Source: an uncultured Arachnia sp. (GTDB lineage: Bacteria; Actinomycetota; Actinomycetes; Propionibacteriales; Propionibacteriaceae). From it: a stretch of 64,000 nt of DNA. Below are positions 1 through 47,147 of the stretch, piece by piece. The position numbers and the translations under genes are program-made. The DNA is taken from the NCBI GenBank assembly GCA_947493995.1, contig CANLTJ010000003.1:29298-93297 (forward strand), read 5' to 3'. The notes under the pieces were generated by a model. That model had not been told where the DNA came from. It saw only the letters and a program-made list of their open reading frames with translations, and ran no database searches. Numbering within the stretch: position 1 is the first letter of the stretch; each line of letters starts with the position of its first letter.

Positions 1-951
1 CAGCATGCACAGGAGGCCTTCTACTCCGCGGGAATGCAGTCGATCGGAGTGGGATTGCTCGTCGCCGCCGTCGGAGCAATCGCCGTGACACTGGTGACGA
101 CGCGACGGCTCAGCCGGTGGCTCAGTGCTCTCAGCCGAGGGGCGGAACGTGTATCCGCCGGTCACTACGAACAACCCGTCTCCCTGAGCCACGCCAGTCC
201 TGAGCTGGAGCGTGTGGCCGACGCCTTCAACGGCATGGCGGCCCAGATAGAGACTACGGAGTCCCGACGGCGAAAGCTCCTCACCGATGTCGCACATGAA
301 CTCCGCACCCCCATCGCCGCAATCGACGTGACCCTGGAGGGACTGGAGGACGGGGTGATCGCGCCCGGGGACCAGGCCTATGCCACGCTGCGTGCGCAGT
401 CCGCCCGATTGGCGAGGCTGGCCGCCGACATCCGTGACGTCAGTGCTGCGGAGGAGGGACGTCAGCACATCAGCCTGCGAAGGACGACGGCGGGGGAGCT
501 CGTCGAAGTCTGCATCCGTGAGTGGGCCGGACGATTCTCCGAAGCGGGCGTCGCCCTGCGATGCAGTGTGGACGACGACGCCGAGGTGGATGTGGACCGG
601 GCCCGCATCGAACAGGTGCTGGACAACGTGTTGGCCAACGCTCTGCGTCACACGCCGCGGGGTGGACGCGTGGAAGTTCGAGCCGTACCCGTGGCCGGAC
701 GGGTAGCCATCGTCGTCACCGACGACGGCGAGGGCATCAGCGCCGAGGCGCTGCCCCACGTCATGGAGCGCTTCTATCGAGCAGATCCTGCCCGCGGGAG
801 AGCCGACGGTTCCGGAACCGGCGTGGGTCTGGCGATCTCCCGAGCGATGGCTCGCGCCCACGGAGGGGACCTGACCGCCCACAGTGACGGACCGGGACGC
901 GGTGCCACTTTCACGTTGTCTCTGCCATCTTCATCAAATCTTCACCGATGA
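1..951 (+). CDS. Sensor histidine kinase (HAMP-HisKA-HATPase, BaeS/CusS-like), 5'-truncated by window edge
   Basis: Frame is open from base 1. It has the H-box DVAHELRTP, N-box QVLDNVLANALRH, G1 DDGEGI and G2 GTGVGLAI, with a TM segment before the HAMP domain. Confidence 0.92.
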   Translation, partial: QHAQEAFYSAGMQSIGVGLLVAAVGAIAVTLVTTRRLSRWLSALSRGAERVSAGHYEQPVSLSHASPELERVADAFNGMAAQIETTESRRRKLLTDVAHELRTPIAAIDVTLEGLEDGVIAPGDQAYATLRAQSARLARLAADIRDVSAAEEGRQHISLRRTTAGELVEVCIREWAGRFSEAGVALRCSVDDDAEVDVDRARIEQVLDNVLANALRHTPRGGRVEVRAVPVAGRVAIVVTDDGEGISAEALPHVMERFYRADPARGRADGSGTGVGLAISRAMARAHGGDLTAHSDGPGRGATFTLSLPSSSNLHR

Positions 952-1054
952 AGCGTTGAACCGGAGTGCGTCGTCGGCATGCTGGAAGCCAGTCCAGGCT
1001 TTATCGCCGCGACAAGTCCACATCGTTGTTCCTCAAGCCTCAAGGAAAGTGACC

Positions 1055-1696
1055 ATGACCCGCATACGAACCGCCGTTCTCTCCGCTGCCCTGCTGTTCG
1101 GCCTGGGAGCTGTCGGAGGCTGCAGCACCGTCACCGGTTCCGGCGCAGAGCCGGCCGTGAGCACGACGTCACCAGCGGATGCCGAGGCGCCAACCGGAGA
1201 TGTCGAGGCGCCAACCGGAGATGCCGAGGCGCTGTTGTCCGCTCACGGGCTCTCCGGCATGACCGCACGGGAGGTCGTGGAGACCCTCGACCAGGACCCG
1301 GCCGCTCGCCCACTTGAAATCATGGGATCCGTCACCTACGACGAGGTCGTCCTCAGTGATGAAACCGCCGAGGTCTCCCTTCCGCTCGACGGCGACGAGT
1401 TCTACATCTCCGCGGCGCCGTACGAGACCAGAACCCATGACTGCTACTTCCACAGCCTCGGGACCTGCCAGGGCGAACTGACCAACACCGACGTCCACGT
1501 GAGCGTTGTCTCCGACGACGGTGAGACCCTCATCGATGAGGACATGACCACCTATGCCAACGGCTTTGTCGGTTTCTGGGTACCGAAGGACATCTCGGGC
1601 ACGGTCACGATCACCAAGGACGGCCTGACCGCTGAAGTGCCGTTCTCCTCCGACGAGGAGGGAGCAACGTGTCTAACCACTGTGGAACTCACCTGA
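1055..1696 (+). CDS. cueP: CueP-family copper-binding lipoprotein
   Basis: ATG at 1055 after AAGGAAAG, with lipobox VGGC. Motifs FYISAAPYETRTHDCYFHSLGTCQGEL, NGFVGFWVP and C-terminal TCLTT match the CueP His/Cys pattern. Confidence 0.8.
   Translation: MTRIRTAVLSAALLFGLGAVGGCSTVTGSGAEPAVSTTSPADAEAPTGDVEAPTGDAEALLSAHGLSGMTAREVVETLDQDPAARPLEIMGSVTYDEVVLSDETAEVSLPLDGDEFYISAAPYETRTHDCYFHSLGTCQGELTNTDVHVSVVSDDGETLIDEDMTTYANGFVGFWVPKDISGTVTITKDGLTAEVPFSSDEEGATCLTTVELT
1178..1232 (+). repeat. In-frame 21-nt tandem repeat (about 2.6 copies) in the CueP linker
   Basis: GATGCCGAGGCGCCAACCGGA / GATGTCGAGGCGCCAACCGGA / GATGCCGAGGCGC, encoding DAEAPTG-DVEAPTG-DAEA. Confidence 0.9.
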
Positions 1697-41932: not shown

Positions 41933-42143
41933 CACCCCGCCGCTTTTGTGGGCGAGATTGATTGCGGTGGGCTGGGGGACAGCTGTTGAACTCTCATGAA
42001 CCCTTACACCGCACTCAGCGGTGAAGGTGTTCACGCGACGCCTCGGGACACGAAGAGGAGTAGGTCACAGGGAAGATCACCGATCCTGCCGGCAGTAGAA
42101 CTCGACGAGCGGTGGACGCCTAGTAATGCGGCGTGCGCCCTCT

Positions 42144-43691
42144 TCATTCGATGCGGCGTGTGCCGTTTTTGTCGATGGTGTAGCGGAAGCCGAGTGGTGA
42201 TGTCCAGGTGAGTTGTCCGGGGTGGGGTTGGTCACATCGCCAGAAGCCGGCGGTTTTGGCGCGGTGGGTTGTGCGGCTGAGTGGTGCGAGGTTGTCGAGT
42301 CGGGTTTGCGCGTCTCGGTTAGCGGCTTGGTAGGGATCGGTGTGGTCCAGGTCGCAGCCGCGGCTGTTCCGGTTGCTGTAGGGGAAGGCCTCGCGGGGCC
42401 AGGTGAGCTGGATTGCTTCTTTGAGCGCCTTGCTGGGCCGGTACTGGTATTGCGAGGGGATGGTGTTGAGGTCGATTACGGGGGTGATGGTGACCTGTTT
42501 CCCGTCGAGCAACTCCACCAGGGTCCGGGCTGCGACGGTGCCGGCGTCTTCGATGTCGGCTGCTGTGATGTCCGCGGTGAGGTGGATGTAGATCTGGGCT
42601 CGCGGTTGGAGTTTGGCGGGTGGGACGGTGATGGTTCCGCAGGTGTGGCCAAGGCAGTGGTGGGGATCGGTGTCGATACGGCCAGTGGCGGTGTCGATGA
42701 CCTCGTGGGCCGCGCTGTCGGCTGCGGTGGGCGGCGGTGGGGATGCCCCGTCGCTAGCGGCGACGGTGTCGTTGTTCACACAGCCGGTCCCGGCCTCGGC
42801 GCCAGCTCTTGCCGTGGCTGGGACATCATTTCCCTTTCCGGCCGTGCTGGCTGAGGTTGTGGCCGGGTCGGGTTCAGCATCAGCCAGGCCTTCGGCGACA
42901 TCATCAGCGGTGGTGCCGAAAATCGGTTGCTGCACCCCGCCTTGCAGCATCGCCAACGCGACGGCGGGATGCGCCATGATCCCGAGTGCTTTGGCACGCA
43001 ACACATCCAACGCCACTTTCGTGTATTCGGGTTTGGCGTGGAGGATCTCAGCGATGCGGGTGGCGGTGGCGTAGACGTATTTCGCGTCCAGGGCATCAAG
43101 TGTCGCGGTCAGGTTGATGGTGGCTTCATGGAACCCCCACAGTTTGACCTCCCGCGCCCGCAAACGGGCGGCTTCCTTCTCAGCCGCCATCACCGGATCC
43201 ATCTCCACGATGATCCGGTCGCACAAATCGATAGCGCCCTGCCAGCCGTAGCGATGCTGCCTCTCCACCCACAACTCCCCAGCCCGCTGGGCGGCCTTCG
43301 GGGTGAGGACCCCGAACTTGCCGGCGGCTTTCCGGGCACGGTGCGCATCCAAGCACAGGTCCTGAACTGCCTGCCACAGGTTGCGGTGGCGGTAGTACAG
43401 GTTCAAGGTTTCAAACAAGATGGCTTTGCCCTGCTGCGGGGAGCATCCCATCAACGGCCCCAACTCCATCGCGGCGAACTCCGAGATCGGGATCGTGCCG
43501 AACGAGCCGCCGGTGGCAATGTTTTCGACCAGGTCCTCGATCAGGTCATCATCGATGATGGTGTCGATGCTGGCGGTGTAATTCTGCGCCAGCGCGAGGA
43601 TGGCTCGTAGCTGGTCGGCTTTGGCTTGTTTCTCCCGCGTCAACGCCGACAGCAGCAACTGCGCCGCCTCATCGCATCTATCTTTCTCCAT
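42144..43691 (-). CDS. DUF222 / HNH endonuclease (13E12-repeat family)
   Basis: DUF222-like N-terminus (EFAAMELG..MG.S..., LRAKALG.MA) and a C-terminal HNH-like CDLDHTDPY...NLAPLSRTTHRAKT...WTSPLG. Confidence 0.82.
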   Translation of the reverse strand: MEKDRCDEAAQLLLSALTREKQAKADQLRAILALAQNYTASIDTIIDDDLIEDLVENIATGGSFGTIPISEFAAMELGPLMGCSPQQGKAILFETLNLYYRHRNLWQAVQDLCLDAHRARKAAGKFGVLTPKAAQRAGELWVERQHRYGWQGAIDLCDRIIVEMDPVMAAEKEAARLRAREVKLWGFHEATINLTATLDALDAKYVYATATRIAEILHAKPEYTKVALDVLRAKALGIMAHPAVALAMLQGGVQQPIFGTTADDVAEGLADAEPDPATTSASTAGKGNDVPATARAGAEAGTGCVNNDTVAASDGASPPPPTAADSAAHEVIDTATGRIDTDPHHCLGHTCGTITVPPAKLQPRAQIYIHLTADITAADIEDAGTVAARTLVELLDGKQVTITPVIDLNTIPSQYQYRPSKALKEAIQLTWPREAFPYSNRNSRGCDLDHTDPYQAANRDAQTRLDNLAPLSRTTHRAKTAGFWRCDQPHPGQLTWTSPLGFRYTIDKNGTRRIE

Positions 43692-43701
43692 ACACCTATT
43701 A

Positions 43702-43717
43702 TAGAACACCTGTACGA
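43702..43717. promoter_or_regulatory. LexA (SOS) box overlapping the DUF222 -10 element
   Basis: TAGAAC-ACCT-GTACGA versus actinobacterial consensus TCGAAC-N4-GTTCGA (one mismatch per half-site). It overlaps minus-strand TATAAT (43698-43703), 6 nt before the ATG. Confidence 0.7.
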
Positions 43718-43742
43718 CTAAACACCATGCTCATGATGCATC

Positions 43743-43751
43743 TGTGGATAA
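43743..43751. promoter_or_regulatory. Perfect DnaA box
   Basis: TGTGGATAA is the reverse complement of TTATCCACA. It is a single copy, so function is uncertain. Confidence 0.4.
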
Positions 43752-44305
43752 CTCCGGGAAACAAGGATGAGCATCGTTTTCGACAATGAGATCAGTCAGA
43801 TGTGAGTGGCCGGTGCCAGGGAAATCCCCGCTGAATCGGAATGAGGATCGCATCAGTTGAGCGACCCTTCGATACACGACCGCTCGTTCCCCGCCGTCGT
43901 TACTCAGGGAACGATCTGAACGGCGCCTCGACCCGACTCAGCGCAGCTCTGCCTCATCACGACTGGGAGTGCCTCGCGATCATCGATCCGGAAACCATCT
44001 GAGGGCTACCTCATCGACTCAGCGTAGGTCCCCCATCGATGTGGGTGCCAGCGATCCATTCCTGATGCAGCAGACGATGCGCCGAATGATGGGCGGGAGA
44101 GTTGCGCCCGGGCTCGCATCGCCACCATGGACAGCCACCGTCGGATGGGTTGCCGAACACCGGTCAACGCTCAGATGCGCCTGCACGGCAGTAGACTCGA
44201 CCGCGCAGGTAGGTACATCGTCCGGATGTACCCGGCGAACTCGCGGCGTCTTACGACTGGCTGGCCGCGCTCCACTGCAACGTCGAACGAGAACTGGAGC
44301 ACCCC

Positions 44306-45157
44306 ATGGCGGGAACGATATTGATCACAGGAGCCGGTACCGGCTTCGGCAAGGAAGTCGCACTACGTCTGGCTGCCCAGGGTCGGGAGGTGATCGCTGG
44401 CGTGGAGATCATTGCCCAGGTCACCGAGCTGCGTGCCGAAGCGGAGAAGCGAGGCGTGGACTTGCGGGTAGAGAAGCTGGACATCACCGACCCTGGTGAT
44501 AGGACGAAGGCGTGGTCCTGGGATGTGGAGGTGCTGCTTAACAATGCCGGGATCGCCGAGGGCGGTGCAGTCGTCGACATCCCCGAAGACCAGATTCGCC
44601 AGCAGTTCGAGGTCAACGTTTTCGGGACGATGCTGCTCACGCAGGGATTTGCTCGCACCATGGCCGCGAAGCGATCCGGCAAGATCGTGTTCGTGTCCTC
44701 GACCGCCGGGCTGATCACTGACGCATTCACCGGTACCTACTCTGCGTCCAAGCACGCGATCGAAGCGTTCGCCGATGCTTTGAACCAAGAACTTGCCGAG
44801 TTCGGCGTGGCCATCGCCACCATTAACCCGGGGCCGTATCTGACTGGGTTCAACGACACGGCGATGGAACGCTGGAAGGAATGGCGTGATGATCCCTCTG
44901 GGCGACTCTTCGACTACACGGAATTGGCGTTCCCGCGTGAGCAGTTGGACCCTGAGCCGGTGTATGACGTCGCTGTTGCGGTGCTGACGGGTGCGACTGA
45001 TCTCTACCGAAACGTGGTTCCCGACGAGATGGTCAGTGCGATCCGCGAGCAATTGGATTCGAAGTGGGAACGGCAGCAGAACGACGGCGCAACCGGTGCA
45101 CGCAGTGAATTGGTCGAGAAGGCATACGAACTCGCGCCGGCTACACCCGCGGAGTGA
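44306..45157 (+). CDS. Short-chain dehydrogenase/reductase
   Basis: ITGAGTGFG, LLNNAG, EVNVFG, SS and YSASK catalytic motif. Confidence 0.92.
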   Translation: MAGTILITGAGTGFGKEVALRLAAQGREVIAGVEIIAQVTELRAEAEKRGVDLRVEKLDITDPGDRTKAWSWDVEVLLNNAGIAEGGAVVDIPEDQIRQQFEVNVFGTMLLTQGFARTMAAKRSGKIVFVSSTAGLITDAFTGTYSASKHAIEAFADALNQELAEFGVAIATINPGPYLTGFNDTAMERWKEWRDDPSGRLFDYTELAFPREQLDPEPVYDVAVAVLTGATDLYRNVVPDEMVSAIREQLDSKWERQQNDGATGARSELVEKAYELAPATPAE

Positions 45158-45321
45158 TTCCTCAGCACCACGCAACCTCCAGCCGCGTTCCTGGGTCTAT
45201 CTGAGGTTCGGTGTCTTTTTCTCCTCTATGACAGGCGGCCATGGTCGTGAGGGGTGACACGGGAAACGTCACCGCTGGGGGCACACGGCAAAATCCGCCG
45301 GAGCGACTACGGGAGTCCGGT

Positions 45322-45531
45322 GTGTTGTCTTCGTACAGAGCGGACGGGGCAGTGGGCGTCACGCTGAACCAGCTGATGTTTCGGAACGGCATCACGCGCA
45401 AGCAGCTGGGGGAGGCATTGGGTATCACGGGCCCGGCCGCCGGTCGCAAGCTGCGCGGGGAGATTGGGTGGTCCTTGACCGACCTGTTCATCGCGGCGGA
45501 CTTCTTCCACATTGAGGTGACCGAGCTCTAG
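45322..45531 (+). CDS. XRE-family HTH protein (possible amber-truncated repressor of an integrative element)
   Basis: GTG after GGGAG (upstream ATG 45241 is possible); ITRKQLGEALGITGPAAGRKLRGEIGWSLTDLFIAADFF is an XRE/Cro-like HTH. Confidence 0.7.
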   Translation: MLSSYRADGAVGVTLNQLMFRNGITRKQLGEALGITGPAAGRKLRGEIGWSLTDLFIAADFFHIEVTEL

Positions 45532-45543
45532 CCTCGGCGAGCA

Positions 45544-45577
45544 AAAGAAGATCCCGCCCTGGGTAACCAGGACGGGA
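45544..45577 (-). terminator. Intrinsic terminator of tRNA-fMet
   Basis: Minus strand TCCCGTCCTGG-TTAC-CCAGGGCGGGA followed by TCTTCTTTT. Confidence 0.7.
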
Positions 45578-45586
45578 CCCTCGGTG

Positions 45587-45663
45587 TGGTAGCGGGGACA
45601 GGATTTGAACCTGTGACCTCTGGGTTATGAGCCCAGCGAGCTACCGAGCTGCTCCACCCCGCG
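45587..45663 (-). tRNA. tRNA-fMet (CAT), initiator
   Basis: CGCGGGGTGGAGCAGCTCGGTAGCTCGCTGGGCTCATAACCCAGAGGTCACAGGTTCAAATCCTGTCCCCGCTACCA. Has a 1:72 mismatch, three G-C pairs in the anticodon stem, and an encoded CCA. Confidence 0.97.
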
Positions 45664-45675
45664 TCGGTGCTAAGA

Positions 45676-45704
45676 ACTATAGTCCGGGACCTCAGCTGGA
45701 ACAA
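45676..45704 (-). promoter_or_regulatory. Sigma-70 promoter of tRNA-fMet
   Basis: TTGTTC-17 nt-TATAGT, 12 nt upstream of the tRNA 5' end. Confidence 0.55.
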
Positions 45705-45712
45705 ATCGACGA

Positions 45713-47147
45713 CGACACTCACATATAGTCCCCGCGAGGGTGGGGGCCGTACCTCACATACTTTCCCCGGGAAGCGGTGGGTCGGCCACGATGGGGTGTG
45801 AGATATGAGGAGCAGCTGTCGATGGCGGCCAGGTACGAGGTCACGAAGAAGTACGCTCAGGCGTACGCGGAGGCACCCAAGCAGGGTAAAAGCGTGATCT
45901 TGGACCAGGTTGTCGAGGTCACCGGCTGGAACCGGGACCACGCCCGCCAGCAACTGGTGGCGCGGTTGCGGCAGGCCCCTGGCCGGGCGGTCGCGACGGT
46001 CACGGTGATCGATCGCCGCAAGACCCGGCCGTGCAAGTACTCCTACGACGCGCGTCTGGTGTTGCAGAAGGTGTGGGCGACCTCGGGCGGCAGCTGTGGG
46101 CAGTACCTGGCCCCGGCCATGACTGACTGGCTCGACGCGATGGAGGCCGAAGGATCCCTGGTGCCCGGCCATGACCGCTACGGCCCCGACGTGCGTACGG
46201 AGCTGGAGGCCATGTCCGCGGCCACGATCGACCGCTACCTCGCCCCCGCACGGGCCAAGGACCCGATCCGGGGCAAGTCAGCAACCAAACCCGGGGCCAT
46301 GTTGCGGAACTCGATCAGCATCCGCAAGGCCGGTGACGAGGTCGCCTCCGAACCCGGGTTCTTCGAGGTCGACACCGTCGCCCACCGCGGGCCGACATTG
46401 AAAGGCGAGTTCTGTCGGAGCGTGAACTTCACCGATGTCCACATCGGTTGGGTGTTCACTGCCGCGGTCCGCAACAACGCCCGGGTACACATCCTGGCCG
46501 CGTTCGACGCGTTCGTCGATGAGGTGCCATTCGCGGTGACCGGGATCGACTGCGACAACGGCTCAGAGTTCATCAACCACGACCTGGTCGGCTGGGCCGG
46601 CCAACGAGGGGTGTTCTTCACCCGATCCAGGCCATACAAGAAGAACGACCAAGCCACGATCGAGTCGAAGAACAACCACCTCGTGCGCCGCTACGGCTTC
46701 TACCACCGCTACGACACCGCCACCGAACTCGCCCTACTGCGCGAACTGTGGAAGCTGGTCAACGACCGCCTCAACTTCTTCACCCCGACCAAGAAACCCC
46801 TCGGCTGGTCCACCGACACCGTTGGCCGCCGCAAACGTCTCTACGACAAACCCCGCTCGCCCTACCAGCGGCTCCTCGACGCCGGCGTGCTCAGCCCTGT
46901 CCAAGAGAGCGAACTCGCAACCTACAAAGCCGCTATCCGCCCCGTCGCACTCCACCGACGTATCACCGAGATCCAACACGAACTCACCCGACTCGCCGCC
47001 GGCAAGACCCGCCGAATGGAACAACAGATCAACTGGAAAGCACCCGACCCAGCAGGACTCAAAACCCGCGCCAGCTAACGTCCCCTTCGCGGGGGAAACT
47101 ATCTGAGGTACGGCCTACCCCACGCGGGGACTTGACAATGAGGTACT
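45713..47147 (+). mobile_element. Insertion sequence with a single DDE (rve-like) transposase; ISNCY/ISLbi1-like by recollection; exact ends tentative
   Basis: Imperfect IR cores of about 42 bp at 45727-45768 and 47092-47132 (AGTCCCCGCG...GGCCGTACCTCA.ATA.TTTCCCC), with weaker CTCA/TGAG extension outward. Confidence 0.8.
45777..47078 (+). CDS. DDE transposase/integrase
   Basis: FFEVDTVAH (D), GIDCDNGSEF (D), SRPYKKNDQATIESKN (E), and N-terminal KQGKSVILDQVVEVTGWNRDHAR. Start uncertain (45798 or 45822). Confidence 0.9.
   Translation: MGRPRWGVRYEEQLSMAARYEVTKKYAQAYAEAPKQGKSVILDQVVEVTGWNRDHARQQLVARLRQAPGRAVATVTVIDRRKTRPCKYSYDARLVLQKVWATSGGSCGQYLAPAMTDWLDAMEAEGSLVPGHDRYGPDVRTELEAMSAATIDRYLAPARAKDPIRGKSATKPGAMLRNSISIRKAGDEVASEPGFFEVDTVAHRGPTLKGEFCRSVNFTDVHIGWVFTAAVRNNARVHILAAFDAFVDEVPFAVTGIDCDNGSEFINHDLVGWAGQRGVFFTRSRPYKKNDQATIESKNNHLVRRYGFYHRYDTATELALLRELWKLVNDRLNFFTPTKKPLGWSTDTVGRRKRLYDKPRSPYQRLLDAGVLSPVQESELATYKAAIRPVALHRRITEIQHELTRLAAGKTRRMEQQINWKAPDPAGLKTRAS

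Follow-up and report, generated by a model that had tools for sequence, protein, structure and literature searches.

A repressor gene reading into the initiator tRNA gene of an uncultured Arachnia: probable relic of an integrative element with conjugative relatives in Tessaracoccus

What does a small repressor gene signify whose reading frame, beyond a single amber codon, continues antisense through the terminator of the initiator tRNA gene and ends in the anticodon loop? This arrangement lies in a stretch of 64,000 nucleotides (here called the window) from an uncultured Arachnia species (GCA_947493995.1, contig CANLTJ010000003.1). A preliminary description, made from the letters alone, took it for the att junction of an element that targets tRNA-fMet and whose repressor overlaps the tRNA, by analogy to integration-dependent immunity as known from mycobacteriophage BPs and its relatives. 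Immunity of this type has been described for BPs itself (cluster G) and for Brujita (I1) and Charlie (N) (Broussard et al., 2013; PMC3694055; PMC4557955). In the BPs-type layout rep and int are co-directional, cro is divergent and attP lies inside rep (PMC3694055; PMC4557955). We call the gene rep in the following.

An open frame antisense to tRNA-fMet and its homologues

Positions 45241-45663 of the window translate as ...FFHIEVTEL-stop-PRRAKEDPALGNQDGTLGVVAGTGFEPVTSGL-stop. The amber TAG at 45529-45531 is followed by exactly 32 sense codons and then by TGA at 45628-45630, the complement of U33-C34-A35 in the anticodon loop of the initiator tRNA-fMet (Table 1); on re-translation the amber, the 32 open codons and the anticodon-loop stop that had been described earlier all proved base-exact. 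The former tail consists of 19 linker codons over the tRNA terminator, through which the rep frame passes, and of 13 codons antisense to the 3' half of the tRNA (VAGTGFEPVTSGL). The other two antisense frames of tRNA-fMet stop earlier, one at a TAG in the acceptor stem and the other at a TGA in the T loop. By sequence and Rfam alignment the tRNA carries the marks of an initiator, i.e. a C1:U72 mismatch, A11:U24 and three G:C pairs closing the anticodon stem. The window genome has one tRNA-fMet, and one was counted in each of 61 genomes sampled of the genus Tessaracoccus. The start of the frame is less clear-cut. An alternative to the ATG at 45241 is a GTG at 45322 with GGGAG 6 nt ahead of it, which the preliminary description had taken as the start; this is doubtful, as homology to the relatives reaches upstream to about 45295 (PPERLRESG...).

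Table 1. Features at the rep/tRNA-fMet junction of the window
Feature	Coordinates	Strand	Basis or remark
Short-chain dehydrogenase (SDR) gene abutting the relic	44306..45157	+	Pfam adh_short, E 6.8e-41
Terminator-like hairpin and T run after the SDR gene, 20 nt before ATG 45241	45191..45221	+	
rep relic, XRE/Cro-type regulator gene (predicted)	45241..45531	+	Present ORF 96 aa from ATG 45241
Ancestral rep start site, now ACG (putative)	45285..45287	+	DNA alignment with P0007 contig L072 (ATG GCA AAG)
Amber at second residue of conserved (L/I)(L/I)P motif	45529..45531	+	Alignment with relatives
Former C-terminal tail of rep, 32 codons and TGA	45532..45630	+	Translation; same tail in intact relatives
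Intrinsic terminator of tRNA-fMet	45547..45582	-	16-bp stem, U tract, dG -39.7, z -3.8
att core equivalent, tRNA positions 40-77	45587..45624	-	Segment duplicated at far end of intact elements
Initiator tRNA-fMet, attB target, single-copy	45587..45663	-	ARAGORN and Rfam: tRNA-Met(CAT)

Could an ordinary host XRE regulator simply end at the TAG, with the neighbouring tRNA and the open frame being coincidental? The earlier caveat that 32 open codons may occur by chance at high GC was justified: at the 65% GC of this window, stop-to-stop frames with 60 codons or more run on past their stop for a median of 37 open codons, and 56% of them reach 32 or more. Since comparable frames are so often equally open, the frame behind the amber is uninformative and within chance when taken alone, and the case rests on the homologues, whose conservation argues that the frame is real. 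Two of the three relatives returned by the first protein search end ...LLPRK...VAGTGFEPVTSGL, and the third enters another tRNA (...RGSNPRPMD). In the intact relatives at tRNA-fMet, from about ten lineages, the amber is always replaced by a codon for Leu or Ile, and without exception they stop at the same TGA. Codons seen at this site in relatives are CTG (P0007, G020, G017, L049), ATT (G041, G019) and CTT (G001). The intact ones share the C-terminus ...VAG(T/A)GFEP(V/A)(T/A)SGL (P0003, P0004, G020, G017, G010, G055, G041, G076, G064, G068, L049/L052, P0007, P0008, P0012). The linker measures 54, 57 or 60 nt (18, 19 or 20 codons) in intact relatives and is in frame every time. In at least 12 of the 61 genus genomes a homologue of rep converges on tRNA-fMet or on a partial tRNA-fMet copy (counted as rep-bearing: G000, G001, G010, G017, G019, G020, G041, G042, G055, G064, G068 and G076); the gene is not a core gene and is absent from most genomes of the genus. 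Coincidence is refuted by this survey and retains practically no probability: about ten independent homologues continue past the amber position and stop at that very TGA, the gene is missing from most genus genomes, and its linker and terminator in the window are near-identical to those of element copies. What the preliminary description had proposed to look for is indeed what the homologues show, namely an end in ...GFEPVTSGL, an overlap with tRNA-fMet and a sense codon for Leu or Ile in place of the amber; none of the intact ones ends at the TAG position or away from the tRNA, and presence at tRNA-fMet in at least 12 of 61 genomes is not the pattern of a core gene.

The family extends far beyond this genus. 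A profile search of 1.84 billion representatives yielded 2982 relatives, and in about 48 of the best 60 of these an antisense tRNA T-arm peptide (GFEP, GLEP or [DG]SN[PQL]) follows the helix-turn-helix (HTH); several longer forms among the same 60 end ...TAA, ...EAA, ...LAA or ...DAA. Ends resembling the ssrA tag are seen in phage-type homologues (Pipp ...PAAA, P0033 ...TAA, P0050 ...EAA, P0062 ...LAA). Distant members enter tRNA-Arg (L054) and other tRNAs, with a divergent HTH_17 gene upstream. Near-identical rep/tRNA-fMet junctions were also found on a contig of a Rhodospirillaceae MAG (L049, CBDDHW010000032) and on a 397-nt contig of the Candidatus Omnitrophus magneticus single-cell assembly (L052, JYNY01000587); as the junction is of actinobacterial type, both are probably due to contamination or mis-binning.

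A second, unrelated kind of element uses tRNA-fMet in genome G063, where the gene that crosses the junction encodes a recombinase: a 507-aa large serine recombinase (L028, G063:C1:1469903-1472979, ORF 21..1544) enters the tRNA antisense, in the frame that rep also uses, and has the C-terminus ...FLVAGTGFEPVTSGL. Read-in to a tRNA can consequently arise without a switch function and is in itself no proof of function.

The product of rep is predicted to be an XRE or Cro/C1-type HTH regulator. The window protein scores 21.4 bits against Pfam BetR/HTH_31, just below the cut-off of 21.6; BetR was matched by 8 of 9 family members (best E 4.4e-7), and HTH_3, HTH_31 and HTH_26 were matched too. An AlphaFold2 (AF2) model of the intact G041 homologue has a five-helix XRE fold at residues 21-83 with pLDDT above 90, for which Foldseek gave C.AhdI, ClgR and P22 c2 as best matches (rmsd 1.3-1.5 over 60-66 columns). 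From residue 89 onwards the G041 tail is predicted to be disordered (pLDDT below 50). The amber of the window falls directly after the last helix of the fold, at the equivalent of residue 84 in this model, so that according to the prediction only the tail would have been removed.

Sequence comparison of the window with its closest relative, a single pair, gave a dN/dS of 0.20 for the HTH body and of about 1.6 for the linker, the latter with low pS. The constraint on the linker thus seems to act at the level of the DNA, i.e. the terminator, rather than of the protein. No selection on the tail as a protein was detected by dN/dS, and stop counts in the three linker frames were uninformative, with few stops in any of them. 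The in-frame linker indels, which represent only about three events, are the sole argument for an open frame that has been kept.

Intact elements at tRNA-fMet in Tessaracoccus

The nature of the element can be read from relatives with visible context. In genome G017 the order from the tRNA is rep, a divergent HTH_17 gene, HTH_36, TrbL/VirB6, a VirB4-like ATPase, a CHAP hydrolase, VirD4 and ParA-like genes, the coupling protein VirD4 being matched with E 1.4e-60. At the far end, 31.3 kb from the tRNA, a 286-aa tyrosine integrase reads inward (Pfam E 8.3e-18), and beside it tRNA positions 40-77 recur as a direct repeat of 38 nt. G017 thus has integrase, att repeats, coupling protein, VirB4 and VirB6, but no relaxase could be identified in it. 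The element of G055 (33 kb) has the same ends, and that of G068 (47 kb) has an int gene interrupted by an IS. Repeats of the tRNA 3' part measure 35-38 nt in G017, G055, G068 and G019, and partial tRNA-fMet copies (positions ~39-77) occur in at least 10 genus genomes. The tyrosine integrase and the duplicated tRNA 3' part that the preliminary description expected at the far end of homologous elements are accordingly both present in G017 and G055. An encoded CCA was considered as a mark of element-supplied tRNA ends and rejected, for G041, G001 and G076 carry rep without encoding CCA.

G020 and G041 have the left-end gene order of G017, to which G020 adds a sortase and a TQ adhesin. A divergent HTH_17 gene is found 70-100 nt from rep in G020, G041, G010 and L054, and genes for a type IV secretion system (T4SS) or conjugation stand directly behind rep in G041, G020, G017 and G010, as well as in the near-identical G064 and G068 copies. 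Judged by their gene content, the carriers of rep with visible context in Tessaracoccus are conjugative elements of 31-47 kb with a T4SS and with rep at the attL end.

Several of these loci show additional features. Directly beyond the attR repeat of G017 we found the C-terminal part of a serine recombinase (Zn_ribbon_recom; L016 13243-14094, G017:C49) with a frame across the partial tRNA copy, a remnant that suggests that two elements accreted in tandem at tRNA-fMet of this genome. In Tessaracoccus bendigoensis (G020:C126) two complete tRNA-fMet sequences (L017 7732-7806 and L010 2173-2249) lie 5.4 kb apart, one without and the other with an encoded CCA, and the conjugative element follows the second copy. 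In G019 (L015 565-2934, G019:C197) a gene for a heavy-metal P-type ATPase, possibly the cargo of a tandem or rearranged element, comes after a 5'-truncated rep stump beside a partial tRNA copy.

Was the element once present in the window of the same kind? It was probably conjugative rather than a phage, as far as its relatives tell: the type is taken from copies with 59-66% protein identity (59% for G041; G019), the closest relative, P0007, being on a context-free 1-kb contig. The alternative is a small temperate phage bearing a classical integration-dependent immunity cassette, and the family is indeed widespread in phage-type cassettes (Pipp, and many long forms with AA tags). However, T4SS or conjugation genes follow rep in every readable Tessaracoccus relative at tRNA-fMet, and we regard a phage as a rather unlikely carrier.

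Decay of the window copy

The ORF at 45241-45531 very probably is the orphaned and decaying left-end rep of a mobile element that had entered the 3' part of the single tRNA-fMet by tyrosine recombination. The P0007 contig reads ...EVTNLLPRRAKEDPALDNQDGIFTIVAGTGFEPVTSGL, and compared with it the window has ACG in place of the ATG start, a 1-nt indel just downstream that leaves this ACG (45285-45287) out of frame with the rep body, TAG for CTG at 45529, and no homology upstream. The alignment stops just upstream of the ancestral start, at about 45280, so that promoter, operator region and HTH_17 gene have been lost, with an accessory SDR gene in their place; the surviving piece of the element comprises its last ~300 bp. 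The amber truncation noted earlier is therefore real but is one of at least three lesions, and its suggested origin from TTG is possible but unproven: CTG, ATT and CTT, the codons of the relatives, are at least two steps away from TAG. No match to Phage_integrase was found on the 443-kb contig C3, in agreement with the earlier remark that the repressor had been left without an integrase, and the genome has no VirB4 homologue, no CTA amber suppressor tRNA and no second copy of the tRNA 3' half either in the window or elsewhere (short matches are T-arms of tRNA-Pro and of other tRNA genes). That the locus is the att junction of a tRNA-fMet-targeting element with an overlapping repressor agrees with the homologues and with the far-end integrase and repeat of the intact relatives.

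The window tRNA has a terminator that hardly differs from its counterparts in the elements of P0007, G041 and G019 but does not resemble the native one beyond attR in G068. Both the terminator and the 3' end of this tRNA-fMet are of the element type. We suppose that the relic persists by supplying the 3' end and terminator of an essential, single initiator tRNA. G001 (TGG to TGA), G019 and G042 (IS3 insertion) likewise contain rep stumps that lack the 5' side but retain the tRNA-proximal end, and together with the window these four retained stumps fit retention by a tRNA that would now depend on the element end.

On the other side of the relic, an orthologue of the SDR gene at E<=1e-60 is found in none of the 60 other genus genomes. 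The gene is accessory and marks the former position of the element interior; its use as a core neighbour defining an empty site was rejected on account of this absence. An attempt to set island borders by synteny with G003 was abandoned, since the locus is rearranged between the species and the M16 peptidase genes lie on the opposite side of the tRNA. A DUF222/HNH-type gene (42144-43709, minus strand; repeat region 42135-43950) has two further copies with 91-95% identity on C1 and C8 of the same genome, and a homologue adjoins tRNA-fMet in G003 in opposite orientation. The gene of a 433-aa transposase with an rve domain, single-copy in the genome, lies at 45777-47078 and is separated by about 110 nt from the tRNA-fMet 5' end. 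The tRNA promoter seems to have been spared, as the window shares with G041 and G001 a TATAGT-like box just upstream of tRNA-fMet (45681-45686 in plus coordinates, minus-strand reading).

Two other explanations of the amber have to be weighed. A sequencing or assembly error would mean that the full integrated-form Rep is still encoded. Only one codon is concerned and the assembly is a draft of 58 contigs, yet TAG differs by two bases from the CTG of the closest relative, and the independent 5' lesions and the loss of the whole element speak for decay regardless of this codon; such an error is very unlikely. Alternatively, the host might have domesticated a tail-less XRE repressor that is still made, with ATG 45241 or GTG 45322 as its start and perhaps on transcripts that continue from the SDR gene; the repressor would bind operators of incoming related elements and thereby provide immunity or exclusion. 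The folded domain is predicted to be complete with the amber exactly at its end, dN/dS of the HTH body is low (0.20), GGGAG precedes the GTG at 45322 by 6 nt, and it is the short form that is active in BPs (PMC4557955). But the ancestral start and its phase have been lost, and promoter/operator region and partner gene are deleted. Furthermore, a terminator-like site separates the SDR gene from the ORF, and a search for a sigma-70-like promoter of the relic found none. The low dN/dS would mostly reflect the history before decay (pS 0.32), and the comparable copies of G001, G019 and G042 are clearly defective. We consider domestication improbable and the window rep, as a decaying relic, most likely non-functional.

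A candidate excision-state switch and its place among known systems

With rep at the attL end converging on the tRNA and int reading inward at the far end, the two genes become co-directional when the element is circular. When we joined the flanks computationally for G017 and G055, rep, att core and int indeed came to lie on one strand, with 82 or 67 nt between the core and the int ATG, which is in the +1 frame. The integrated form of Rep has 114 aa in both elements; with the flanks joined it reaches 187 aa (G017) or 162 aa (G055). In G019 an attP/attR-type junction was seen directly and adds 23 residues to Rep. None of the three excised-form proteins ends in an ssrA-like tag (...AVRTR in G017, ...HVLAS in G055, ...WVQRP in G019), and a C-terminal degradation tag is likewise absent from Int of G017, the one examined (...ARTRTQP).

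These observations allow a scheme to be drawn. Upon integration into tRNA-fMet, Rep would be trimmed at the anticodon-loop TGA to ~114 aa, i.e. the XRE fold and a tail of ~32 aa that AF2 predicts to be disordered, and int would be severed from the rep promoter. Upon circularisation the rep frame would run 23-73 codons further across the start of int, adding residues that are presumably disordered, and int would again be placed under the rep promoter. The protein would differ between the two states of the DNA, and its state-dependent tail, together with the separation of int from the rep promoter, might act as a sensor of integration, by which the element would read its own DNA state. We tentatively suggest, as one possibility to which we attach somewhat less than even confidence, that T4SS elements of Tessaracoccus and other Propionibacteriaceae have adopted the rep-attP-int module of phage integration-dependent immunity and use it as an ssrA-free sensor of the excision state.

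The prediction that had been made from raw sequence was borne out by the read-through to ...GFEPVTSGL and by the integrase and tRNA repeat at the far end. For the window genome it means that its essential, single initiator tRNA now seems to rely on a 3' end and terminator derived from an element, and the survival of a rep stump after loss of the element would follow from this dependence. For the intact relatives, an intact element in the culture-collection strain Tessaracoccus bendigoensis DSM 12906 (contig NZ_FQZG01000050) makes the mechanism testable. In the literature we found, the att-inside-repressor design is described only for actinobacterial temperate phages and prophages; the present carriers of it are conjugative elements.

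How close are these elements to the BPs system? The preliminary description had pointed to BPs for an attP inside the repressor gene, and this layout recurs in G017 and G055 along with homology to phage cassettes. In the excised form a small tyrosine integrase gene follows rep in the same direction (G017, G055), the att core is the tRNA 3' end inside the rep ORF, integration shortens Rep and gives it an end encoded by host tRNA sequence, and a small divergent HTH gene, which may act either as a Cro or as an excisionase, is found across a short control region (G020, G041, G010, L054). There are differences as well. The carrier in Tessaracoccus is a T4SS conjugative element of 31-47 kb, the ssrA-like C-terminal tag that defines the BPs mechanism is absent (three cases for Rep, one for Int), and the divergent gene is of HTH_17 type (excisionase/MerR-like), in contrast to the cro gene of the phage switch, which lacks xis. 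The window itself keeps only a broken rep, with its integrated-form junction interrupted by the amber. We conclude from the sequences that the arrangement on the conjugative elements is BPs-like in layout, while membership in the BPs type by mechanism is unproven; a tag-free version of the switch is possible. The window feature may then be described as the decayed junction of a known kind of system, of which the relatives appear to represent a variant borne on conjugative elements.

A related system with direct sequence homology is the cassette of Gordonia phage Pipp (MN234179), grouped with the Bowser/Schwabeltier type (PMC4982277). Its gp38 has an HTH, a DLLP motif, an internal ARRDSNPKP and the end ...AEPAAA, and is directly followed by the tyrosine integrase gp37; a divergent HTH gene lies nearby. 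Rep of the window is 37% identical to gp38, and Int of G017 is 38% identical to gp37 (E 5e-54). The cassette shares with the Tessaracoccus relatives the motifs RKLRGE and (D/L)LLP, an internal T-arm antisense peptide and an int gene immediately after rep, and differs from them in its phage carrier, in the targeting of another tRNA and in the end of gp38, which resembles a degradation tag. Homologous Rep and Int on conjugative elements point to an exchange of modules between phages and conjugative elements. Gene 38 of Pipp (L071 2983-3402) is annotated as a hypothetical protein, and the phage has a second tyrosine integrase, gp33. From its sequence gp38 looks like an integration-dependent immunity repressor, with ARRDSNPKP marking the probable attP.

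Integrating conjugative elements of Actinobacteria with a T4SS have been catalogued by Ghinet et al. (2011) (PMC3218068; also PMC3429521). The Tessaracoccus relatives resemble them in having a tyrosine integrase, integration into a tRNA gene with a 3' direct repeat, VirD4, VirB4 and VirB6. Our literature search found no description of a rep-attP-int overlap or of an integration-dependent regulator on conjugative elements of the T4SS type.

In Tn916-like conjugative transposons and at the joint promoter of ICEclc, the junction formed by excision changes what is expressed. Those elements rewire promoters across the joint; in the elements of Tessaracoccus the joint falls inside the coding sequence of the regulator, so that it would be the protein itself that changes.
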